Source: an uncultured Acidobacteriota bacterium
Lineage (GTDB): Bacteria > Acidobacteriota > Terriglobia > Terriglobales > Acidobacteriaceae
NCBI GenBank assembly: GCA_963840655.1
Contig: CAWIZS010000009.1
Span: forward strand, 102,283-166,282
Length of the DNA: 64,000 nucleotides
Reading direction: 5' to 3'
Position numbers and translations under genes: made by a program. This document shows, piece by piece, positions 1,607-15,762 of this stretch; position 1 is the first letter of the stretch, and every line of letters begins with the position of its first letter. Under the pieces are notes generated by a model that worked only from the letters and a program-made list of their open reading frames with translations, had not been told where the DNA came from and searched no databases.

Positions 1607-2014
1607 ATGCACACTCCCAACTATTTCTGGAACTGGCTCCCATTGCTGTTTCAAGTTCTGGCCGCGATCGGGTTGGCGGGAGGAATCGTACTTGCCTCGC
1701 GGCTGATCGGACGGCATCGCCCGGGAAAAATCAAACTCTCAACGTATGAGTGCGGCATCGTCCCCCAGGGAGATGCGCGCGGCCGCTTCTCCGTGCGCTT
1801 CTATATGGTCGCAATGCTGTTCATCCTTTTCGACGTGGAAGCCGTCTTTATGTTTCCCTGGGCGGTGATCTTCCGGAAATTGCCTGCGGTCACCGGCTCC
1901 CGCTTTTTCGGCTTCTGGGAGATCGTCGTCTATCTCGGCTTTGTGTTGGTCGGCTACTTCTACATCGTAAAGAAGGGCATTCTGGACTGGTCCAACGACA
2001 AGGCAGACCTGTAA
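1607..2014 (+). CDS. nuoA: NADH-quinone oxidoreductase subunit A
   Basis: MHTPNYFWNWLPLLF... with YECG and FDVE motifs and 3 TM helices. The ATG at 1607 was chosen inside the longer ORF 1580-2014. Confidence 0.9.
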   Translation: MHTPNYFWNWLPLLFQVLAAIGLAGGIVLASRLIGRHRPGKIKLSTYECGIVPQGDARGRFSVRFYMVAMLFILFDVEAVFMFPWAVIFRKLPAVTGSRFFGFWEIVVYLGFVLVGYFYIVKKGILDWSNDKADL

Positions 2015-2018
2015 CGGC

Positions 2019-2528
2019 ATGACATCTGTGACAGACGCAGGCGAAAGAAACGGCAAAGATGCAGTCCTCGCGGACCACTCCGCCAATCCGGCTGTCGCGG
2101 CGCTGACGCAAAAATTGCCCAACGCAATTCAGCAGGCAAAATTCGACCGCAACGAACTTACCCTGACGCTGGCGCGCGAGAACATTGTTCAGGGATGCCG
2201 CACGGTACAGTACGCCGGCTTTAATTTTCTTGCCGATGTCACTTGCGTCGACTGGTATCCCAACCAGCCGCGCTTCCAGATCGTCTATCACCTGCTTTCC
2301 CTCTCTTTGAAGCAGCGCATTCGACTGTGCGTTCTGGCTGGCGAAGGCGATCCTTCGGTCGATAGCATCACCTCTGTCTGGCCGGCGGCGAATTTTTTCG
2401 AGCGCGAGATCTTCGACCTGTTCGGCGTGCGTTTTGGCGGCCATCCCAATCTGCGGCGCATCCTAATGCCAGACGACTTTCAGGGAAATCCGCTGCGTAA
2501 AGACTTTCCTGTGGAGGGCTATCGCTGA
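2019..2528 (+). CDS. nuoC: NADH-quinone oxidoreductase subunit C
   Basis: The 30-kDa subunit signature ...WPAANFFEREIFDLFGVRFGGHPNLRRILMPDDF... is present. It starts 4 nt after the nuoA stop, so there is no room for nuoB. Confidence 0.9.
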   Translation: MTSVTDAGERNGKDAVLADHSANPAVAALTQKLPNAIQQAKFDRNELTLTLARENIVQGCRTVQYAGFNFLADVTCVDWYPNQPRFQIVYHLLSLSLKQRIRLCVLAGEGDPSVDSITSVWPAANFFEREIFDLFGVRFGGHPNLRRILMPDDFQGNPLRKDFPVEGYR

Positions 2529-3746
2529 TGCCCGAAACCCCCGTCATTCTCGACGCACCGACAATGGTAGAAGCCGATCAGGACCGCACCATGATCCTGA
2601 ACATGGGCCCGCAGCATCCGTCGACCCACGGCGTGCTGCGCCTGGTGCTGGAGATCGATGGCGAAGTGGTGGTTCGCGTCGCGCCGGACATCGGCTATCT
2701 GCACACTGGAATCGAAAAGACCTGCGAGGCCAAGTTTTATCAGCAGGTGGTGCCGCTCACTGACCGCATCGATTATCTCAGCCCGATGCACAATAATCTC
2801 TGTTACTGCCTAGCGGTCGAAAAGCTGCTTGGCCTGGAAGTTCCCGAACGCGCGGTGTGGCTGCGCGTGCTGCTCAGTGAGTTGACGCGGCTGAATTCCC
2901 ATCTTGTCTGGCTGGGCACGCATGCCATGGACTTAGGGGGGTTGACCGTCTTTCTCTATTGTTTCCGTGAGCGCGAGGAGATTCTGCGCATCTTCGATGA
3001 CATCTCCGGCCAGCGGATGATGACCTCTTATTTCCGCATTGGCGGGTTGGCGCTGGAGCCGCCGCTTGACTTTGAACCTCGCGTGCGCGCGTTTCTGAAG
3101 AGCTTGCCCGAGAAGATCGACGAGTACGAAAATCTGCTGACCGGCAATCCAATTTTCATCAACCGCACCAAAGGCGTCGGATTGTTGAGCGCCGATGATG
3201 CGATCGCGCTCGGCGTGACCGGGCCGCCGCTGCGCGCCAGCGGCGTGGACTGGGACCTGCGCCGCGACATGCCCTATTCCGGCTACGAGAAATTTCAGTT
3301 CAACGTGCCGGTATCAAACGACTGCGACGTATGGGCGCGCTACGTGCTCCGGGTGCAGGAGATGCGCGAGTCGGTCAAAATCGCCACGCAGGCGCTCGAT
3401 GGATTGCCGGGCGGGCGCATCACGGCCGATGCGCCGAAGATCGTTCTTCCCGACCGCGAAGCCATGAAGACGCAAATGGAAGCGCTGATCCATCATTTCA
3501 AAATCGTCACCGAAGGGTTCGCCGGTGCCGGCCGGCGAAGTCTATCAGGCAATCGAATCTTCGCGCGGCGAAATGGGCTATTACGTCGTCAGCGACGGGA
3601 CGGCGAAACCGTATCGCGTGCACATGCGCAACCCAACCTTCGCGACTCTGCAGGCGATCGAAAAAATGTGCGTCGGACGTTTGATCGCCGATGTGGTCGC
3701 CGCCATCGGCTCCATTGACATTGTGCTTGGGGAAATCGACCGATGA
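2528..3746 (+). pseudogene. nuoD: NADH-quinone oxidoreductase subunit D, interrupted as assembled by a 1-nt insertion at about 3524
   Basis: ORF 2528-3718 reads NMGPQHPSTHGVLRL... up to ..HHFKIVTEGFA and then turns R-rich nonsense. The authentic C-terminus VPAGEVYQAIESSRGEMGYYV...GSIDIVLGEIDR is in the +1 frame (ORF 3525-3746). Removing one g in gcc-g-gtg restores the frame. Confidence 0.9.
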
Positions 3747-4118
3747 GCGCAACTGCCCCTATGCCAACCCATGCTCACGCATCGACAGCATTGTCCAGGG
3801 AATTGTGGATTTCGCTCGCTTCCCTGCTGCGTTCGCATGTGGCGATGCATTCCATCGCGCGGCCGGCCGCTGCCCATGCGGATTGCCGCCGACTCGCATT
3901 CCGCGACGTTGCTCGGCTCCAGAGGAAAGCTGATCGTTCTCGGCCCGGATGCCTCGGGCAAAGGCTCGACAGAATTTCGCCCGGAAGCCGGCGAACTCGG
4001 CGACGAATACTGCACTTTTTTCTTTACGGAAGACGGATTGGTCTATATCGAGAACTCCGAGACCGCGCTGGACATGGAATCCGCCGTCGAGCATTGGCTG
4101 CGCCAGGTGCAGCTATGA
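3743..4118 (+). CDS. unknown small protein between nuoD and nuoE (start frame and end frame differ; possible 1-nt insertion near 3870, or an internal start at ATG 3876)
   Basis: The ATG at 3743 overlaps the nuoD stop (ATGA) and the stop at 4116-4118 overlaps the nuoE ATG (ATGA). The 3' part ..LLGSRGKLIVLGPDASGKGSTEFRPEAGELGDEYCTFFFTEDGLVYIENSETALDMESAVEHWLRQVQL looks protein-like. I did not recognise a family. Confidence 0.4.
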
Positions 4119-4639
4119 ACCTTACGAACATCGCCGTGAATCCGCAACCACGCCCGACCATTTTTTCGCCGGAGTTGGCCGCGCGTTTTGACAAGCTCGT
4201 CACACTCTATCCCGTTCGCCGTTCCGCGCTCGTTCCCATGCTGCTCTACGCGCAGGACGAGATCGGATATCTCTCCGATGCGGCCATTGCGGAAATCGCG
4301 TGGCGGCTCGAAATCACGGAGCTCGACGTCCGCAATGTACTGACCTACTACTCCATGTTGCGCACAAAGCCGATCGGTAAATTCAACGTGCAGGTCTGCA
4401 CCAACATCAGTTGCATGTTGCGTGGCGGCAAGGAGTTGTTTGAGCATTGCGAACGCCGCCTCGGCATCGGCCACAAACAAACAACGCCGGATGGCATGTT
4501 TACGCTCGAGGAAGTGGAATGCATCGGCGCATGCAGTTGGGCGCCCGCCGTGCAGGTCAACTACGACTTCCACGAAAATCTAACGCCGGAATCCATGGAC
4601 GCAGTACTGGAACAATATCGCAGCAAGGGCGGTAAATAG
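4115..4639 (+). CDS. nuoE: NADH-quinone oxidoreductase subunit E (24-kDa, 2Fe-2S)
   Basis: MNLTNIAV... with Cys ligands VCTNISCMLRG and ECIGACSWAP, which is a thioredoxin-like 2Fe-2S pattern. Confidence 0.9.
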   Translation: MNLTNIAVNPQPRPTIFSPELAARFDKLVTLYPVRRSALVPMLLYAQDEIGYLSDAAIAEIAWRLEITELDVRNVLTYYSMLRTKPIGKFNVQVCTNISCMLRGGKELFEHCERRLGIGHKQTTPDGMFTLEEVECIGACSWAPAVQVNYDFHENLTPESMDAVLEQYRSKGGK

Positions 4640-4640
4640 A

Positions 4641-5951
4641 ATGCCCACGCTTGTCTCCCATCCCGAGGAAGTCCGCATTGTCAGCAGCCGCTTCGGCCAG
4701 GGCGCGACGGAGATCGACCGGTATATCGAGTTGGGCGGCTACCAGTCCGTGCGCCAGGCGATCGAGCAGGGGCCGGAGTGGATCATCGCGCAGATGAAGG
4801 CTTCCAACCTGCGCGGGCGTGGAGGCGCGGGATTCCCGACCGGATTGAAATGGTCGTTTGTTCCGAAAAATGACAAGGCCAAATATGTCCTGGTAAACGG
4901 CGATGAAAGCGAGCCGGGCACCTGCAAGGATCACTTGATCTTTCTTCACGATCCTCATGCAGTAATTGAAGGTACGATCATCGCCGGCTTGGCTATTGGC
5001 GCGAAAATGGGCTTCATCTATTTGCGTGGCGAGTATCGATATTTGCTCACGATCACGGAAAAGGCCATTGCCGATGCATACGCGAAGGGATTTCTCGGCA
5101 AAGGAATCTTCGGCTCGCAGTTCGATTTCGAAGTCGTCTCGCAGACGGGCGCGGGCGCGTATGAAGTCGGTGAAGAGTCGGCGCTGATGGAATCGCTCGA
5201 AGGCAAGCGCGGCATTCCGCGCATTAAACCGCCCTTCCCCGCGGTCGTCGGCCTCTACGGCGGTCCGACGGTCATTAACAACGCGGAGACCATTGCGACG
5301 GTGCCGCACATCCTGCGCATGGGCGCGGAGGCCTACGCCAAAGTCGGCTCGGAGCGCAACGGCGGCACGCGGCTGTTCTGCGTCAGCGGCCATGCCGAGC
5401 GCAACGGCGTCTACGAGTTGCCGATGGGCTACAACCTGAAGAAGCTGATCTATGAAGTCGCAGGCGGCATTCGCGGTGGACGGCAATTGAAGGCGGTCGT
5501 TCCGGGCGGCTCATCGACACCGGTGCTGCTGCCGAGCGAGATCGATATTGGCCTTGATTTCGATCAGGTGGGCAAAGCAGGCAGCATGTTGGGTTCGGGC
5601 GGCGTCGTCGTGCTCGACGACACCGTCTGCATGGTCGAATTTGCTCTACGGACCATCCAGTTCTATCAGCATGAAAGCTGCGGCTGGTGCATCCCCTGCC
5701 GTGAGGGCACGGACTGGCTGAAGAAGACGCTGACTCGGTTCCATGCCGGAGCGGGCGAAGTGAAGGACATCGACAACATCCGCTATTTGTCCGAGAACAT
5801 GCTGGGCCGGACGTTCTGCCCGCTTGGCGATGCGGCGGCTATGCCGACGATTGCATTTGTAGATAAATTTCGGCAGGAATTTGAAGACCATTTAGACGGC
5901 AAGCCTTGTCCTTTTGCGAGGCAGACTGCAGGCGAATTGGTTGGCGTGTGA
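4641..5951 (+). CDS. nuoF: NADH-quinone oxidoreductase subunit F (FMN/NADH-binding, 4Fe-4S)
   Basis: GRGGAGFPTGLKW, GDESEPGT and ESCGWCIPCREG motifs; 436 aa. Confidence 0.95.
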   Translation: MPTLVSHPEEVRIVSSRFGQGATEIDRYIELGGYQSVRQAIEQGPEWIIAQMKASNLRGRGGAGFPTGLKWSFVPKNDKAKYVLVNGDESEPGTCKDHLIFLHDPHAVIEGTIIAGLAIGAKMGFIYLRGEYRYLLTITEKAIADAYAKGFLGKGIFGSQFDFEVVSQTGAGAYEVGEESALMESLEGKRGIPRIKPPFPAVVGLYGGPTVINNAETIATVPHILRMGAEAYAKVGSERNGGTRLFCVSGHAERNGVYELPMGYNLKKLIYEVAGGIRGGRQLKAVVPGGSSTPVLLPSEIDIGLDFDQVGKAGSMLGSGGVVVLDDTVCMVEFALRTIQFYQHESCGWCIPCREGTDWLKKTLTRFHAGAGEVKDIDNIRYLSENMLGRTFCPLGDAAAMPTIAFVDKFRQEFEDHLDGKPCPFARQTAGELVGV

Positions 5952-6133
5952 AAGTTCGGGATTTGATTTTATTGATCGAGGCGGATGGCTGGCGGCTCGA
6001 TACGACGCGAGGAAGTCACAGGCAATTTGAGCATCCAGTAAAGCGTGGCAAGGTCACTGTCGCGGGGCAACCAGGCAAAGATGTTCCGGTCGGCACACTT
6101 CGCAGTATCCTAAAGCAGGCAGGTTTGAGATGA
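5948..6133 (+). CDS. hicA: HicA-family mRNA interferase toxin
   Basis: About 61 aa from the GTG at 5948, which overlaps the nuoF stop as GTGA. It reads VKVRDLILLIEADGWRLDTTRGSHRQFEHP..., with the GSH motif and the size typical of HicA. Confidence 0.8.
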   Translation: MKVRDLILLIEADGWRLDTTRGSHRQFEHPVKRGKVTVAGQPGKDVPVGTLRSILKQAGLR

Positions 6134-6351
6134 GCAAATACATTGTGATCTACGAACGCTCGGCGACCGGATGGGGAGCTTATGTTCCCGATTTGCCGGG
6201 CCTAGGCGTCGTCGGGGATACGCTGGAAGAGACGAAACAGTTGATCCGCGAAGGAATCGATTTTCACATCGAAGGCCTGCGCAAAGACGGAGATCCCGTC
6301 CCGCCTCCATCGACTTTCATTGAAGAAGTGGAAGTGAAAATTCCGGCTTGA
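6130..6351 (+). CDS. hicB: HicB-family antitoxin (short form, no obvious DNA-binding domain)
   Basis: MSKYIVIYERSATGWGAYVPDLPGLGVVGDTLEETKQLIREGIDFHIEGL... is a UPF0150/HicB N-domain pattern. Its ATG overlaps the hicA stop (ATGA). Confidence 0.8.
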   Translation: MSKYIVIYERSATGWGAYVPDLPGLGVVGDTLEETKQLIREGIDFHIEGLRKDGDPVPPPSTFIEEVEVKIPA

Positions 6352-6411
6352 TCTCGGGTGGTTCGCTCCATCAAAGCCCTCCACACCATCTGCATCGAAA
6401 GTTTTAACTTC

Positions 6412-8762
6412 ATGGCTGATGTAACCCTTACTGTTGACGGCAAAAAGATCACCGCACCGGCGGGCACGCTGCTGATTGAAGCGTGCCGCAAGGTCGGCAT
6501 CGAAGTCCCCGCGTTCTGCTACTATCCTGGTCTGTCGTTACAGGCTGCCTGCCGCATGTGCCTGGTGCGCATTGAAAAAATGCCGAAGCTGCAAACCTCC
6601 TGCACCACGCCGGTTGGCGAAGGCATGATCGTTTCGACCGAAACCGACGAGATCAAGCAAGCGCGCAAATCCATGCTGGAGCTGCTGCTGGCGAACCATC
6701 CCCTCGATTGCCCGGTGTGCGATAAGGGCGGTGAGTGCGAACTACAGGACATGACCTTCAAATATGGCGCAGGAGGTTCGCAATTCGTCGAAATCAAGAA
6801 CCACCGCGACGAGCAGCAATGGTCGCCGGTCGTCTTTTTCGATCGCCCGCGCTGCATCCTGTGCTATCGCTGCGTACGCGTATGCAATGAAGGCATGGAC
6901 GTTGCCGCGCTCGGCATTCAGCAGCGCAACGTAGGCTCGGTGATCGCGCCCAACGATCAAAACTCTCTGGATTGCGAACAGTGCGGCATGTGCATCGACA
7001 TCTGCCCGGTGGGCGCGCTCACCTCCGACACCTATCGCTACAAGACCCGCCCCTGGGAGATGAACCATGTGGGCACCATCTGCACCCATTGCGGCGACGG
7101 CTGCAAAACTACCCTGGGCGTGCGCCGCAGTGAGGACGGAATGCAAGTCGTCCGCGGCGACAACCGGGACGCGAGCGGACTGAACGGCGAATTTCTGTGC
7201 ATCAAGGGCCGATATGCGTTCGACTTTGCCGACAGCCCTGCCCGCGTGACGCAGCCGCTGGTGCGCCAGGCCAATGGCGAATTGGCTCCCGTCACCTGGG
7301 AGGATGCCATCGCTTTGGTGGCGAAGAATTTTCGCGAAATTCGCGCAGAGCTCGGCGGCGGCGGCATCGGCGTCATTGGATCCACGCGCATCACCAATGA
7401 AGAAGCTTACCTGCTGCAGAAGTTCGCGCGCGGCACGCTGGGCACGAACAACATCGACCATCACCGCACGACGGATTACGTGAGCTTCGCCCGCGCGCTG
7501 GCCGGACACGCAAATCGCTTCGCCAGCATTGGCGACGCGCTGACGGCGCCCGCGATTTTGCTCGTCGGGAACGATCCCACCAATCAGCACCCGATGCTGG
7601 CCTGGAACCTGCGTACGAATGTGCGGCACAACAAGACGCGCATTTATATCGCGAATCATCGCGAGATCAAGCTTCGGCATCAGGCAAAAAGTTTCCTCCA
7701 CATTCCGGCCAATGACTACGCAGGCTTCGCCCGCTTTCTTGCCGGCGAAACCGAAGCGCGCTTCGGCGAAGACGCAATTGCGTTACGAGACGCGCTCCGC
7801 CAGGAACCGAATCTGCTCATCGTCTTTGGCGCGGAACTGCGTGGCGACGCAATCGATGCGCTGGTCAAATTCGGCCTTTCGCTGCCCGATACAAAATTTG
7901 GCTGCCTCGGCGACTACGTCAATTCACGCGGCGCTTCCGATATGGGCCTCTATCCGGATCTATTTCCCGGCTACCAGCCAGTCCACGACGCAAATCCCAT
8001 GCGCGCGGAGTACGGCGAACGCTTCCCCGCCAAACCTGGCATGGATATGCAACAGATGATCGAGGCCGCAGACCGTAGCCGACTGGCCGCCCTTTATGTC
8101 GTCGGAGACGATCCGGTGGAGCGGCTTGGCCTTCCCGCGCAGACTTTCCGCGAAACTTTCCTCGTCGTGCAGGACATGTTTCTGACTCCGACTGCGAAAC
8201 TCGCCGATGTGGTCCTCCCGACTGCGAGTCTCTACGAGAAATCGGGCACAGTCACCAATACGTTCGGCGATCTGCAGACTGGTGAAAAAGGCCGCCGACC
8301 GCGCGGGCGTGCGCACGCGACCTGGAGCTGATCGTGCGCATCGCCGATCAAATGGGTGAAAACATTCACACGCTGGTGCCGTTCGGCAAAGGCGTCCGTG
8401 CAGACATGGGTCAGTCGCGAGGAGCGCAGTCCGGCGAAGCCGACCGGCACAGCATCTGGCTTGCCGCGCACAACCTGGAACCGAAGCTCAGTCCCTTCGA
8501 TCCCAACGCTGTGCTCGATGAAATTCAGCGCCTGGTTCCCGGCTACGACTTTGATCGAATCGACCTGCTTTCGGGAACGAGCCAGCTAGTCCAGCCTGGA
8601 CTCGGCAACGCGACGCAGCCCTCCAGGATCACCGAGCGCGCGGACGGCGTGATGCCGGCGAACGATACGCTCTTCACCTCCGGCACATTGGGTCAATACA
8701 GCGAAAAGCTGATCGAAATAGAGCAATTTCAAGAGAAGAAAAGTTTGGTTGCGGCCGACTGA
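6412..8762 (+). pseudogene. nuoG: NADH-quinone oxidoreductase subunit G, interrupted as assembled by two 1-nt insertions (about 8278 and 8318)
   Basis: MADVTLTVDGKKI.. shows 2Fe-2S and 4Fe-4S Cys clusters plus a molybdopterin-like domain. ORF 6358-8331 ends in nonsense (TGEKGRRPRGRAHATWS) and ORF 8334-8762 continues RIADQMG... The middle frame reads LVKKAADRAGVRT, which joins the two as ..FGDLQ-LVKKAADRAGVRT-DLELIVRIADQMG. Confidence 0.9.
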
Positions 8763-8806
8763 TTTTTCCAGCGCAAGATTTTCGTAGTGGAAGCGCCGCG
8801 CTGAGA

Positions 8807-9898
8807 GTGCGCGAGTTCGAGATGCAAGACCGAGTGGATACGAAATCGAACGTGAATGTTCTTATTTTCATCCTGTTGAGTCTGCTCAAGGTTGCCGTGG
8901 TCACGGTGATCTTGCTGACGGCTGTGGCTTATACGGTGCTGCTGGAACGCAAGCTCGTCGGGCGCATTCAGAACCGATGGGGTCCCTCGCGTGTCGGCCC
9001 GTTCGGAATGCTGCAACCCTTGGCCGACGGCCTGAAGCTTTTCCTGAAAGAAGACCTGATGCCGACGGCGGTATTTCGCCCGCTGTTTATTCTGGCGCCG
9101 ATTATCGCGCTTTCCTGCGCGCTCATCGTCATCGGAGTGATTCCCTTCGGCGCCAACATTCACTGGCATGGCGTGGACATGTTTCAGATCGCCGACGTGA
9201 ACGTCGGCCTGCTGATCATTCTCGGCGTCACGTCAATCGGCGTGTATGGAATCGCGCTCTCCGGCTGGTCTTCCAACAATAAATATTCTCTGCTCGGTTC
9301 TCTTCGTTCGACGGCGCAGATGGTTAGCTATGAACTGGCGCTGGGCCTTTCCGTCATCGGCGTCGTTCTTCGCACCGGCTCCTTGCGTCTGCGCGATATC
9401 GTCAACATGCAAAGCACGCATGGCTTTCTGTCGTGGAATTTCTTCGGCGGCTTCCAATTTGTCGCATTCTTCATCTATCTGATCGCCGCTTTCGCCGAGA
9501 CGAACCGTACTCCGTTCGATCTGCCGGAGGCAGAAAGCGAACTGACCGCCGGCTATCACACCGAATACAGCTCGATGAAGTTCGCCATGTTTTTTATGGC
9601 CGAATACGCGAACATGATCAATGTCGGCGCGGTCGCCACGCTGCTCTTTCTGGGCGGCTGGACAAGTCCATTCGGCCATCTGATTCCGGTAGTGGGCGGT
9701 CCGGTCATTCAGGCGCTGGAACCCGTGTTCTGGTTCGTGCTGAAGGTATTCTGTTTTCTGTTTCTCTATGTATGGGTGCGCGGAACGCTGCCGCGTTTTC
9801 GTTACGACCAGTTGATGGGATTCGGCTGGAAATTTCTGTTGCCGGTCGCCATCGCCAACGTGATCGTGACCAGTCTGATGCTGGCCATCCATGGTTAA
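8807..9898 (+). CDS. nuoH: NADH-quinone oxidoreductase subunit H
   Basis: LLERKLVGRIQNRWGPSRVGPFGMLQPLADGLKLFLKED and PFDLPEAESEL motifs. The start is uncertain (GTG 8807 or ATG 8822). Confidence 0.9.
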   Translation: MREFEMQDRVDTKSNVNVLIFILLSLLKVAVVTVILLTAVAYTVLLERKLVGRIQNRWGPSRVGPFGMLQPLADGLKLFLKEDLMPTAVFRPLFILAPIIALSCALIVIGVIPFGANIHWHGVDMFQIADVNVGLLIILGVTSIGVYGIALSGWSSNNKYSLLGSLRSTAQMVSYELALGLSVIGVVLRTGSLRLRDIVNMQSTHGFLSWNFFGGFQFVAFFIYLIAAFAETNRTPFDLPEAESELTAGYHTEYSSMKFAMFFMAEYANMINVGAVATLLFLGGWTSPFGHLIPVVGGPVIQALEPVFWFVLKVFCFLFLYVWVRGTLPRFRYDQLMGFGWKFLLPVAIANVIVTSLMLAIHG

Positions 9899-9931
9899 CC
9901 GCAAATTGCAAGCCGGTGGAATCGTAATGCC

Positions 9932-10426
9932 ATGCATGTAGCGCTTTTTATCATCTTCGGACTGCTGTGCCTCGGCGGGGCGTTGAATCTGCTGCTGCAG
10001 CGGCATCCCATCAACAGCGCTCTGTCGCTGATCGTGGTTATGTCTTCGCTTGCCGTTTTGTATCTGCTGCTGGGCGCGGAATTTCTTGCGCTAGCGCAGA
10101 TCATCGTCTACTCCGGCGCCATTATGGTGTTGTTCGTTTTCGTCATCATGCTGCTGAATGCCGGAGAAGAACAGCGCACGCACGGCAGCCGCGCTGCGTA
10201 TCTGGCCGGAGTTCCCGGCGTGCTGGCGCTGTTTGCAGTGCTGGCCGCAACATTCGTCACGCTGCGCACCAGCTTCGGAGATGCGAAACTTGGCGCATTT
10301 CTCGCCACGACGGCGGACCTGGGCCGGGTTCTGTTCCGCGATCTGCTTCTTCCTTTTGAAGTGACCTCGATTCTGATTCTGGTCGCGATCCTGGGCGCGG
10401 TCGTGCTCGCAAGAAAGGAATTTTAA
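9932..10426 (+). CDS. nuoJ: NADH-quinone oxidoreductase subunit J
   Basis: 164 aa and 5 TM helices, with the ..[21 protein letters not shown].. pattern. It starts 33 nt after the nuoH stop, so there is no room for nuoI. Confidence 0.85.
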
Positions 10427-10427
10427 C

Positions 10428-10729
10428 GTGTCCGTCCCGATTGCCTGGTACCTGATCCTGAGCGCGGCGCTTTTTTCCATCGGCGTGTTCGCGTTTCTTA
10501 TCAAACGCAATATCATCTCCATCTTCATGTCCATCGAGTTGATGCTGAACGCCGTCAACCTGGCCTTCGTTGCCTTCGCGAATCACTGGCATCAGGTGAG
10601 CGGGCAGATTTTTGTATTCTTCGTGATGGTGGTTGCCGCTGCGGAAGCCGCAGTGGGTTTAGCCATCATCATCGCTGTCTTCCGCTCCAGAAACACATTG
10701 AATGTCGATCAGATTAATTTAATGAAACT

Positions 10730-10733
<4 letters not shown>
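10428..10733 (+). CDS. nuoK: NADH-quinone oxidoreductase subunit K
   Basis: 101 aa, 3 TM helices, ..[16 protein letters not shown].. and ..[12 protein letters not shown].. Confidence 0.9.
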
Positions 10734-12703
<1,970 letters not shown>

Positions 12704-12718
12704 AGAGGAAGGATTTTC

Positions 12719-14257
12719 GTGTTGAACGCAAGCATCCTGACATGGCTCACCTTCCTGCCCGTCGCCGGCGCGGTGGTGGTGCTGTTGCTGCCCCGGCACG
12801 GACGCGCCCCGCAGATTTTTACTCTGATTTTTACTTTGTGTCTGTTTGTTCTTGCGCTTCACCTTCCTGCACATTTCGACTACCACCAGCACGGATTTCA
12901 ATTCGAACTAAATGTTCCGTGGGTCTCCAATCCCGCAATTCGCTATCACGTCGGCGTGGACGGCCTTTCCCTGTGGCTGGTGGTGCTGGTGTCATTTCTC
13001 GCCCCGCTCGGAGTGCTGATCTCCTGGCGCGCGATTCAAGATCGCAAGTCCGAATTCTATGCGCTCTTTCTGCTGCAACAGACGGCAATGTACGGCGTCT
13101 TCGTCGCGCTGGATTTAATCCTTTACTACGCATTCTGGGAGCTTTCCATCGTCCCGCTGGCGCTGCTGATCGGAATGTACGGCCGCACGACGAACGGGCG
13201 CCGCGCGGCCATCAAATTTTTTCTGTACGCGTTTATTCCTTCCGCGCTGCTGCTGGTCGGAATGATCTGGTTGTATTCCCAAACCGGCACGTTCGACTTT
13301 GTTCAACTCCAGCAGCAGCTTCGTGGCTGGAGCACCGGTCCGCACGCTACCGGACTATGGCTGGCGTCGCTGGCATTTCTGGTTGCATTCGCCGTCAAGG
13401 TGCCTGTCTTCCCGCTGCACGGCTGGCTGCGCGACGGTCTCAGTGAAGCGCCCACGGCGGTCATGATGATTCTTGCCGGTAAGCTGGGCCTCTATTCTTT
13501 GCTTCGCTTCCACGTTGAATTGTTCCCGACAGAGGCAGCACATGTCGCGTTGCTTATGGTCGCGCTGGCGACCATCGGCGTTCTCTACGGCGCGCTGATG
13601 GCACTGGTGCAGACGGACCTGAAGCGCCTGGCCGCCTATGCGACGCTGAGCGCGGTCAGTTTCGTTGTCCTGGGCATTTACGCGTTCACCGTCGCCAGTA
13701 TGGATGGCGCCGCCTATCAGATTCTGAACGAAAGCATCTCCGCTAGCGCCTTCTTTATGCTGCTCGCGATTTTGTACGAGCGCTATGGCACCTACGATAT
13801 GGCGCGGCTGGGAGGCGTCGCCGCAAAGATGCCGCAACTGGCCACGCTGTTCGTCATCACCACGCTGGCGCTGATCGGCCTGCCGTCGCTTGGCAACTTT
13901 GTCGGTGAATTTCTTATCCTGAGCGGCAGCTTTCAAACTCATCCGCGCATCGCTTCCGCGGCGACAGTCGGCGTGATTCTCTCGGCAGCCTACATGCTCT
14001 GGATGATTCAGCGTGTATTCTACGGCGCGCCCGCAGCCAACGGCGCGGTCCTGACCGGCACCGACGTGAACTGGCGCGAGCGCGCGGCGGTTTGGCCGAC
14101 GATCGCGATGATGATTCTTCTTGGCGTGGCCTCCGTCTTCTGGATGAAGGCCATCGACCTTAGTGTTCCCTCAGCCGTCTTTCGCAACGCACGCGTCGTT
14201 ATGACGTTCACGTATAACAAAGCTCCAATCCCGGCAAGGACGGCCTCCACGCGATGA
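12719..14257 (+). CDS. nuoM: NADH-quinone oxidoreductase subunit M
   Basis: 512-aa antiporter-like subunit with ..[20 protein letters not shown].. and a GTG start. Confidence 0.9.
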
Positions 14258-15762
14258 CAGAAGTTTCCCCAGCCCTGCGCATTCTGCCGGAGATCGTGCT
14301 CACCGTGACCGGCGTTCTGGTCATGTTGATTGAGCCGGTGCTCGGCGAAAAACGCTCTCGCAAGCCCCTGGGCCTGCTGGCAATTTTCGGCACGCTCGTC
14401 GCCATTGCAGGCAGCGTTTACCAGCTCTACATTCCAGCCGGAACTGCATTCTTCGGCACCGTGCAGTCGGATGCGTTCAGCGTCTTCTTTCATCTCGTCA
14501 TTGGCGGCATCGTTCTGGTCACGCTGCTGACTTCGCTCGATTATTTCGCGGGACACTCCAGCTACGTCGGAGAATATTACGCGCTGGTTCTCTTCGGCGC
14601 GGTCGGCATGATGCTGATGACCTGTTCCGTCGAGCTGCTGATGGTCTTCATCAGCCTGGAGATCTCGTCCATCTCGACGTACATTCTGGCGGGCTATCGC
14701 AAGCGCAGCGCGACCAGCCCGGAAGCGTCGATCAAATACTTCCTGCTCGGCTCTTTCGCGACGGCATTTTTTCTTTACGGCATCGCGTTGTGTTTTGGCG
14801 CAACCGGCTCGACCAATATTTACGACATCACGAAAGGGGTTGCCGGCGGCGCTTCTCCGCTGCTGCTGACGGTCGCCTTCGGCATGATGCTGATCGGACT
14901 CGGCTTCAAAGTTTCCCTGGCGCCGTTCCATGTCTGGACGCCGGATGTCTATCAGGGCGCGCCCGCTCCAGTCGTTGGATTCATGTCCACCGCACCGAAG
15001 GCCGCCGCGTTTGCCGTGCTGCTCCGCATCAGCTATGGGGCCTACGGCAGCGCAACCCACATCTGGATGCCGTTGGTCTGGATCATTGCTGTGCTCTCGA
15101 TGTGCATCGGCAACATCGGCGCACTGACGCAACGCAACGTGAAGCGGATGCTCGCCTACTCGTCGATCGCGCACGCCGGATATCTGCTGGTTGCATTTAC
15201 CGCGCTTGCGCCCATGGGGATTGCGGCCGCCAGCTTCTATACCGCCGCCTACGCCGCAATGAATGTCGGTGCATTTGCGGTGATCGGCTATCTTTCCGGA
15301 TTTGAAGAAGCCCGCACCAATCTGAACGACTACGCCGGCATCGCGCGCAGGCATCCGGTCGCGGTCGCGGCTTTTGCGGTTTTTCTTATCTCGCTGATCG
15401 GAATTCCCTTCACCGCGGGCTTCTTCGGCAAGTTCTACGTCTTCACTGCCGCGCTCAATTCTCACAATGCGTGGCTTGCCGTTGTCGGATTGCTGAACAG
15501 CGGCGTGGCCGCCTTCTATTACCTGCGCGTACTGGCGCAGATGTACATGGCTCCCGAAGAACCCACGCTGGAACTCCAGGGCGTTCGTGCAGGCCCGGCT
15601 TTTGTTTTGGGAATGGCGATTCTTGTGGCTGCCGTGTTCGTGCTCGGCATCATCCCAGGCGCCACGCTGCGGCTCGCGCAGGCCGGTGGACGAACATTCG
15701 CCACGCCACAAAGGAATCCAGTGCCAAGCGCTCGGCTGACTACAGCTTCCGGTGCGAAATAA
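14254..15762 (+). CDS. nuoN: NADH-quinone oxidoreductase subunit N
   Basis: 502-aa antiporter-like subunit with ..[16 protein letters not shown].. It overlaps the nuoM stop as ATGA. Confidence 0.9.

Follow-up and report, generated by a model that had tools for sequence, protein, structure and literature searches.

The 64,000-nucleotide stretch of DNA analysed here, the window, covers positions 102283 to 166282 of contig C9 (C9:102283-166282) in a 13-contig, 4.74-Mb Acidobacteriaceae genome with an estimated completeness of 96.7%. On its + strand, at 1607-15762, it carries an operon for complex I, the genes of which were assigned by Pfam matches of the open reading frames (ORFs), in the order nuoA-C-D-E-F-(hicA-hicB)-G-H-J-K-L-M-N, with nuoG in two pieces. 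NuoE, NuoF and NuoG, and with them the NADH-oxidising N-module, are all encoded, which sets the operon apart from the 11-subunit complex I-like type that lacks NuoEFG. It departs from the canonical layout, in which nuoB lies between nuoA and nuoC, and nuoI between nuoH and nuoJ: the nuoA stop codon (TAA, 2012-2014) is followed after 4 nucleotides (cggc) by the nuoC ATG at 2019, and the nuoH stop codon (TAA, 9896-9898) after 33 nucleotides by the nuoJ ATG at 9932. Both gaps, the want of a NuoB- or NuoI-like gene in the operon, and frameshifts in nuoD and nuoG had been pointed out in an earlier interpretation of the stretch (the sequence-only reading), and all of these descriptions are borne out. 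Of the explanations offered there, supply of the two subunits in trans or decay of a paralogous operon, the former is supported. Very probably a single complex I of the 14-subunit type is built from three loci, and the split is an old rearrangement inherited within the family and not a loss.

Profile searches of the whole genome for NuoB (PF01058) and NuoI (TIGR01971) had as their sole match in the window the ferredoxin domain within NuoG, and tblastn of the genome's own NuoB and NuoI against window positions 1-22000 gave no match, that is, no remnant of either gene. The possibility that NuoB is concealed in NuoA or NuoC, or NuoI in NuoH or NuoJ, as part of a fusion protein was considered and rejected, the four would-be partners all being of normal length with a single Pfam domain. 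The same searches found both genes elsewhere, in unrelated neighbourhoods on contigs C11 and C9. The one complex-I-type nuoB is an intact single gene at C11:171555-172127, its product scoring, against NCBIfam models, 251 bits with NF005012 (cut-off 116) and 236.5 bits with TIGR01957 (cut-off 142.7). The one nuoI, likewise intact and single, is at C9:391704-392195, 225 kb past the window, and its product alone in the genome exceeds the TIGR01971 cut-off (123.3 bits against 113.05). All four cysteines of iron-sulfur (Fe-S) cluster N2 are kept in NuoB (GLACCAIEMM, GACATSGG and VPGCPP, containing the tandem CC, GxCxxxGG and GCPP), and NuoI keeps both CxxCxxCxxxCP motifs for clusters N6a and N6b (CVACFLCAAACP and CIFCGYCVEACP). 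The genome thus encodes all 14 core subunits NuoA-N, 12 in the window, NuoB on C11 and NuoI on C9. The neighbours of the solo nuoB have nothing to do with nuo, glycosyltransferases lying on one side and a PKD/OmpA gene on the other; the solo nuoI is upstream of a PCC-domain gene and then of metH (B12-dependent methionine synthase; C9:387476-392195; L011:3477-8196).

Is there a second nuo operon with which the solo genes might be shared? In a blastp comparison of all the window's Nuo proteins with the genome translated in six frames, NuoA, C, E, F, H, J and K turned out to have no paralogue, and the window operon is therefore the only nuo operon of this genome. The PF01058 profile matches in three places: the solo nuoB, a fused ferredoxin/NuoB-like gene on contig C6 and a hydrogenase small-subunit-like frame. 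The C6 gene belongs to a group-4 [NiFe]-hydrogenase-like membrane cluster (C6:277600-285000; L012:3625-10952) that also has NuoH-like, NuoM-like and NuoL-like genes and a 540-amino-acid NuoC-NuoD/HycE-like fusion; its own product is a 268-amino-acid protein in which a 2x[4Fe-4S] NuoI/HycF-like domain is fused to a NuoB/HycG-like domain. Because it encodes such a fused NuoI-like/NuoB-like protein this cluster was considered as a supplier of the two subunits. It was rejected: the fused protein is just ~41% identical to NuoB, it sits within a cluster holding its own NuoH-like, NuoCD-like and NuoL/M-like genes, and true NuoB and NuoI orthologues exist elsewhere in the genome.

For comparison 80 loci of relatives were gathered in a NuoH-seeded scan, one genome per species, with DNA of up to 10 kb on each side of nuoH. 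By title all are of Acidobacteriaceae type except two binned as Verrucomicrobiae, and among them are Terriglobus roseus DSM 18391, Granulicella paludicola DSM 22464, Occallatibacter savannae, KBS 89 and KBS 146. Their NuoH proteins are 71-88% identical to that of the window. A NuoB or NuoI match was present in none of the 80 loci, and the direct junctions are common property, that of nuoA with nuoC being seen in 64 of the loci and that of nuoH with nuoJ in 79. The solo genes are as widespread. The solo nuoB has an orthologue (73-87% identity) in 59 of 61 genomes of the family and in all 53 of those of high quality, and none of 30 loci inspected has nuoA or nuoC as a flank; the PKD/OmpA neighbour is kept in this genome's own locus and those nearest to it, 15 in all. 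For nuoI, 40 of 41 genomes have the solo orthologue (78-90% identity), with neither nuoH nor nuoJ flanking it in any of 25 loci. In most of these loci (L177-L200) metH adjoins nuoI, which is typically just upstream on the same strand; in this genome the PCC-domain gene intervenes. The operon without nuoB and nuoI is the normal, lineage-typical layout in Acidobacteriaceae, a group of soil Acidobacteria, ordinary and not decaying.

Many Acidobacteriaceae have in addition a second nuoB paralogue (~58-69% identical), while most family genomes have one nuoI. In three genomes inspected (G006, G056 and G014; L123-L125) this second nuoB is also solo, with no nuo neighbour within 10 kb; in two other family genomes, among the matches listed, it is beside a second nuoA.

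Table 1. Genes of the nuo operon in the window (positions counted from its first nucleotide; aa, amino acids)
Gene	Position	Strand	Product and profile matches
nuoA	1607..2014	+	135 aa from ATG 1607; PF00507 4.9e-34
nuoC	2019..2528	+	169 aa; PF00329 7e-43; TIGR01961 133 bits, cut-off 122
nuoD	2528..3746 (assembled ORF 2528-3718)	+	split; parts 2528-3523 and 3525-3746 (C-terminal 73 aa, next frame)
nuoE	3743/4115..4639	+	PF01257 on residues 150-293; TIGR01958 168.8 bits (174-aa form)
nuoF	4641..5951	+	436 aa; PF01512, PF10589, SLBB
hicA	5906..6133	+	PF07927 1.2e-21, 77 bits (cut-off 27)
hicB	6130..6351	+	PF15919 8.9e-11, 42 bits (cut-off 27)
nuoG	6358..8762 (6358-8331 + 8334-8762)	+	split; Fer2_4, NADH-G_4Fe-4S_3, Fer4_Nqo3, Molybdopterin
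nuoH	8807..9898	+	363 aa; PF00146 4e-124
nuoJ	9932..10426	+	164 aa; PF00499 5.8e-37
nuoK	10428..10733	+	101 aa; PF00420 1.4e-30
nuoL	10730..12703	+	657 aa; PF00361, PF00662
nuoM	12719..14257	+	512 aa; PF00361
nuoN	14254..15762	+	502 aa; PF00361; operon's final gene

Within the operon some junctions are far from uniform. Between nuoF and nuoG is inserted a HicAB type II toxin-antitoxin pair, recognized by adjacent HicA_toxin and HicB-like domains, and divergent hicA-hicB pairs occupy the same junction in 7 of the 80 relatives (L016, L032, L034, L036, L048, L056 and L086), with identities of 41-53% for HicA and 30-63% for HicB, against 74-89% for NuoF. A hicB-like match on its own is at this junction in 3 more of the relatives, and at least 8 further ones have nuoF-nuoG inserts of 450-1100 nucleotides with no hic match, most relatives' gaps being of 3-100 nucleotides. 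Small inserts seem to favour this junction as a hotspot. What lies between nuoD and nuoE also varies, T. roseus having two extra ORFs there, of 158 and 131 amino acids (L084:4828-5721). The conserved NuoE domain in the window fits a start at ATG 4115 (to 4639, 174 amino acids); the frame is open from ATG 3743, giving 298 amino acids with an N-terminal extension of ~124, and NuoE residues 61-298 (L013) and 69-298 (L016) are conserved in one frame in close relatives. In two relatives (L077 and L072) nuoH and nuoJ are separated by an insert of 1.5 kb, which in L077 holds an opposite-strand ORF of 283 amino acids (11164-12015) that resembles a membrane protein and is not nuoI. Downstream of the operon in the window, an ATP synthase a-subunit gene (PF00119, 16646-17488, - strand) converges on the end of nuoN.

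How would an enzyme be put together from such scattered parts? The window operon would supply the twelve subunits A, C, D, E, F, G, H, J, K, L, M and N, with NuoB (cluster N2) and NuoI (clusters N6a/N6b) provided in trans from the two unlinked single genes. After translation these would join NuoC/NuoD and NuoH, completing the Fe-S wire that leads from NuoG to the quinone site, as they do in every complex I. Supply in trans is supported because the solo nuoB and nuoI are intact with complete motifs and because the whole family keeps them, unlinked. Their unlinking would then be an old rearrangement handed down family-wide, with no gene lost. The version of trans-supply that the sequence-only reading had in mind, subunits shared with another operon, does not apply here, there being no second nuo operon in the genome.

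Of the other explanations the simplest is misassembly, the two genes having been dropped from both junctions. It has the unusual gene order in its favour and nothing else, and can be set aside with very little hesitation, because independent assemblies show the same junctions (64 for A-C and 79 for H-J, finished genomes of cultured strains included), and nuoB and nuoI are found in conserved neighbourhoods of their own. Hardly more credible is the decaying paralogue, an operon from which nuoB and nuoI have gone, the work being done by another, complete operon. The sequence-only reading had seen the frameshifts and the hicAB insertion as fitting such decay, and they are what can be said for it. 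Yet this is the genome's only nuo operon, the same gene order without nuoB and nuoI is found in all 80 relatives with NuoH so well conserved, and the unlinked genes are kept family-wide. Against decay, too, hicAB or another small insert recurs at the same place in relatives' operons that look intact, almost all relatives have an intact NuoD and NuoG, and the density of frame breaks in the window operon is not far above the background of the assembly.

The frameshifts themselves are present in the assembled sequence. One base too many stands in nuoD, near 3524; the assembled ORF covers just positions 1-198 of the 271 of the PF00346 profile, and the conserved C-terminus after the shift (VPAGEVYQAIES...LGEIDR) runs in the next frame to 3746. 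In nuoG, alignment with three relatives places two extra bases, near 8277 and 8317. All 78 relatives compared have NuoG in a single frame; for NuoD the figure is 61 of 63, and a broken nuoD is found also in two other metagenome-assembled genomes (MAGs) among the relatives, L077 and L064. For a background estimate, 400 kb of sequence from G032, a finished relative, were translated and the ORFs of at least 200 amino acids aligned to this genome. The 186 likely orthologues, with 207 kb aligned, contained 7 frame breaks, distributed over 6 genes; in one of these, two breaks lie ~140 nucleotides apart (C9:357075-359235). Further examples are at C6:107669-109751 and C3:1580188-1581643. This amounts to at least ~1 break per 30 kb, a lower bound because detection was conservative.

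Could complex I have been inactivated recently in this strain, the insertions being real, the operon a pseudogene cluster at an early stage, and respiration being left to other NADH dehydrogenases, with the layout lacking nuoB and nuoI inherited all the same? This is the rival to be taken most seriously, though we consider it unlikely. The shifts are peculiar to this assembly, a long homopolymer is found at none of the three sites, and 3 events at 2 sites in ~13 kb of coding sequence is a density a few-fold above the sampled background. Were the insertions real, nuoD and nuoG would be broken as assembled and the enzyme dead in this strain. The broken frames and their density tell against a working complex I from three loci. 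Promoter and terminator consensus scans around the solo nuoB and nuoI gave nothing useful above shuffled expectation. Against recent inactivation, the sequence past each shift is fully open and 74-81% identical to that of relatives, the ten other nuo genes are intact and so are the solo nuoB and nuoI, and the occurrence of comparable breaks elsewhere in conserved genes, with one gene doubly broken, is a pattern that fits consensus indel noise. Broken nuoD occurs, besides, in the two other MAGs. On the sequences compared, the three single-nucleotide insertions, being specific to this assembly, are most likely consensus indel errors and less likely very recent mutations.

Beyond the family, 30 NuoA-centred loci from other acidobacterial families were surveyed. 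The order A-B is present in 23 of the 30, mostly followed by nuoC or nuoC-nuoD. A sister-family genome (G074) has the full A-C-D-E-F-G-H-J-K-L-M-N order. In another genome (G123) A-C-D belongs to an EFG-containing operon, no NuoK or NuoM match being kept, and two more (G103 and G128), of another acidobacterial family, have an A-C-D-H-K-L-M-N cluster, no NuoJ match being kept. In both of the latter the unlinked nuoB adjoins a NuoI-like gene, in G103 with a TIGR01971 score of 101.9 bits, just below the 113.05 cut-off (L206:4432-5675), and in G128 by tblastn only (L207). When NuoBs were placed in a tree, the solo ones of the family grouped with that of G074 in a single clade (support 98/90), which lies within a set of acidobacterial NuoBs encoded in operons, and the other solo lineages are placed outside it. 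With these falling elsewhere, at least three separate unlinkings are required.

Does such recurrence mean that the exclusion of the two small Fe-S connectors from acidobacterial nuo operons is functional and not an accident? The thought arises because the unlinking came about at least three times in the phylum and because B and I travel as a two-gene unit of their own in one lineage, and we rate it as improbable. If true, the split could allow the Fe-S wire of the Q-module to be regulated independently, for instance by iron or Fe-S supply, and, with most family genomes having one nuoI and many two nuoB genes, one NuoI could serve two complex I isozymes.

Complex I genes are dispersed in other organisms as well, among them the ndh genes of cyanobacteria and the solitary nqo8 and nqo9 of Rhodothermus marinus. 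A functional complex I can be built from several transcription units; here it is exactly the two small Fe-S subunits that are unlinked, and the arrangement is fixed across a whole family. The order of the nuo genes is reportedly not essential for assembly of the enzyme in E. coli (Oppermann et al. 2022). Set beside nuoA-N of that organism and nqo1-14 of Thermus thermophilus, the genome described here encodes the same set of 14 core subunits, keeps the 12 genes of its operon in unchanged relative order, and has an N-module (E, F, G) and complete cluster-binding motifs in NuoB and NuoI; it differs in having nuoB on another contig and nuoI 225 kb past the window. Of the bacterial genomes that encode complex I, just 86% have colocalised nuo genes and the remaining ~14% do not (Spero et al. 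2015).

The acidobacterial layout lacking nuoB and nuoI is itself already known, having been mentioned briefly by Hausmann et al. (bioRxiv 10.1101/197269). In their account the acidobacterial MAGs studied "harbour one or more nuoACDHJKLMN operons", with nuoEFG included in one operon of each. A literature search found this passing statement and no paper in which the split is analysed explicitly. The peatland MAGs of Hausmann et al. (SbA1-7) belong to the same phylum and class-level lineage as the genome described here, and share with it the gene order, the position of B and I outside the operon and the single nuoEFG-carrying operon per genome. They differ from it in that it has the EFG-containing operon only, with no second, nine-gene operon, and in the additions of hicAB between nuoF and nuoG and of three assembly-specific frameshifts.

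For those who annotate genomes there is a practical moral. Where nuoA-N is expected in one block, the complex I of acidobacteria will wrongly be called incomplete or degenerate. Such miscalls are prevented if one knows to look for nuoB and nuoI as conserved solo genes, the latter typically beside metH. That the two Fe-S connector subunits, and exactly these, have repeatedly become unlinked is a modest evolutionary curiosity.

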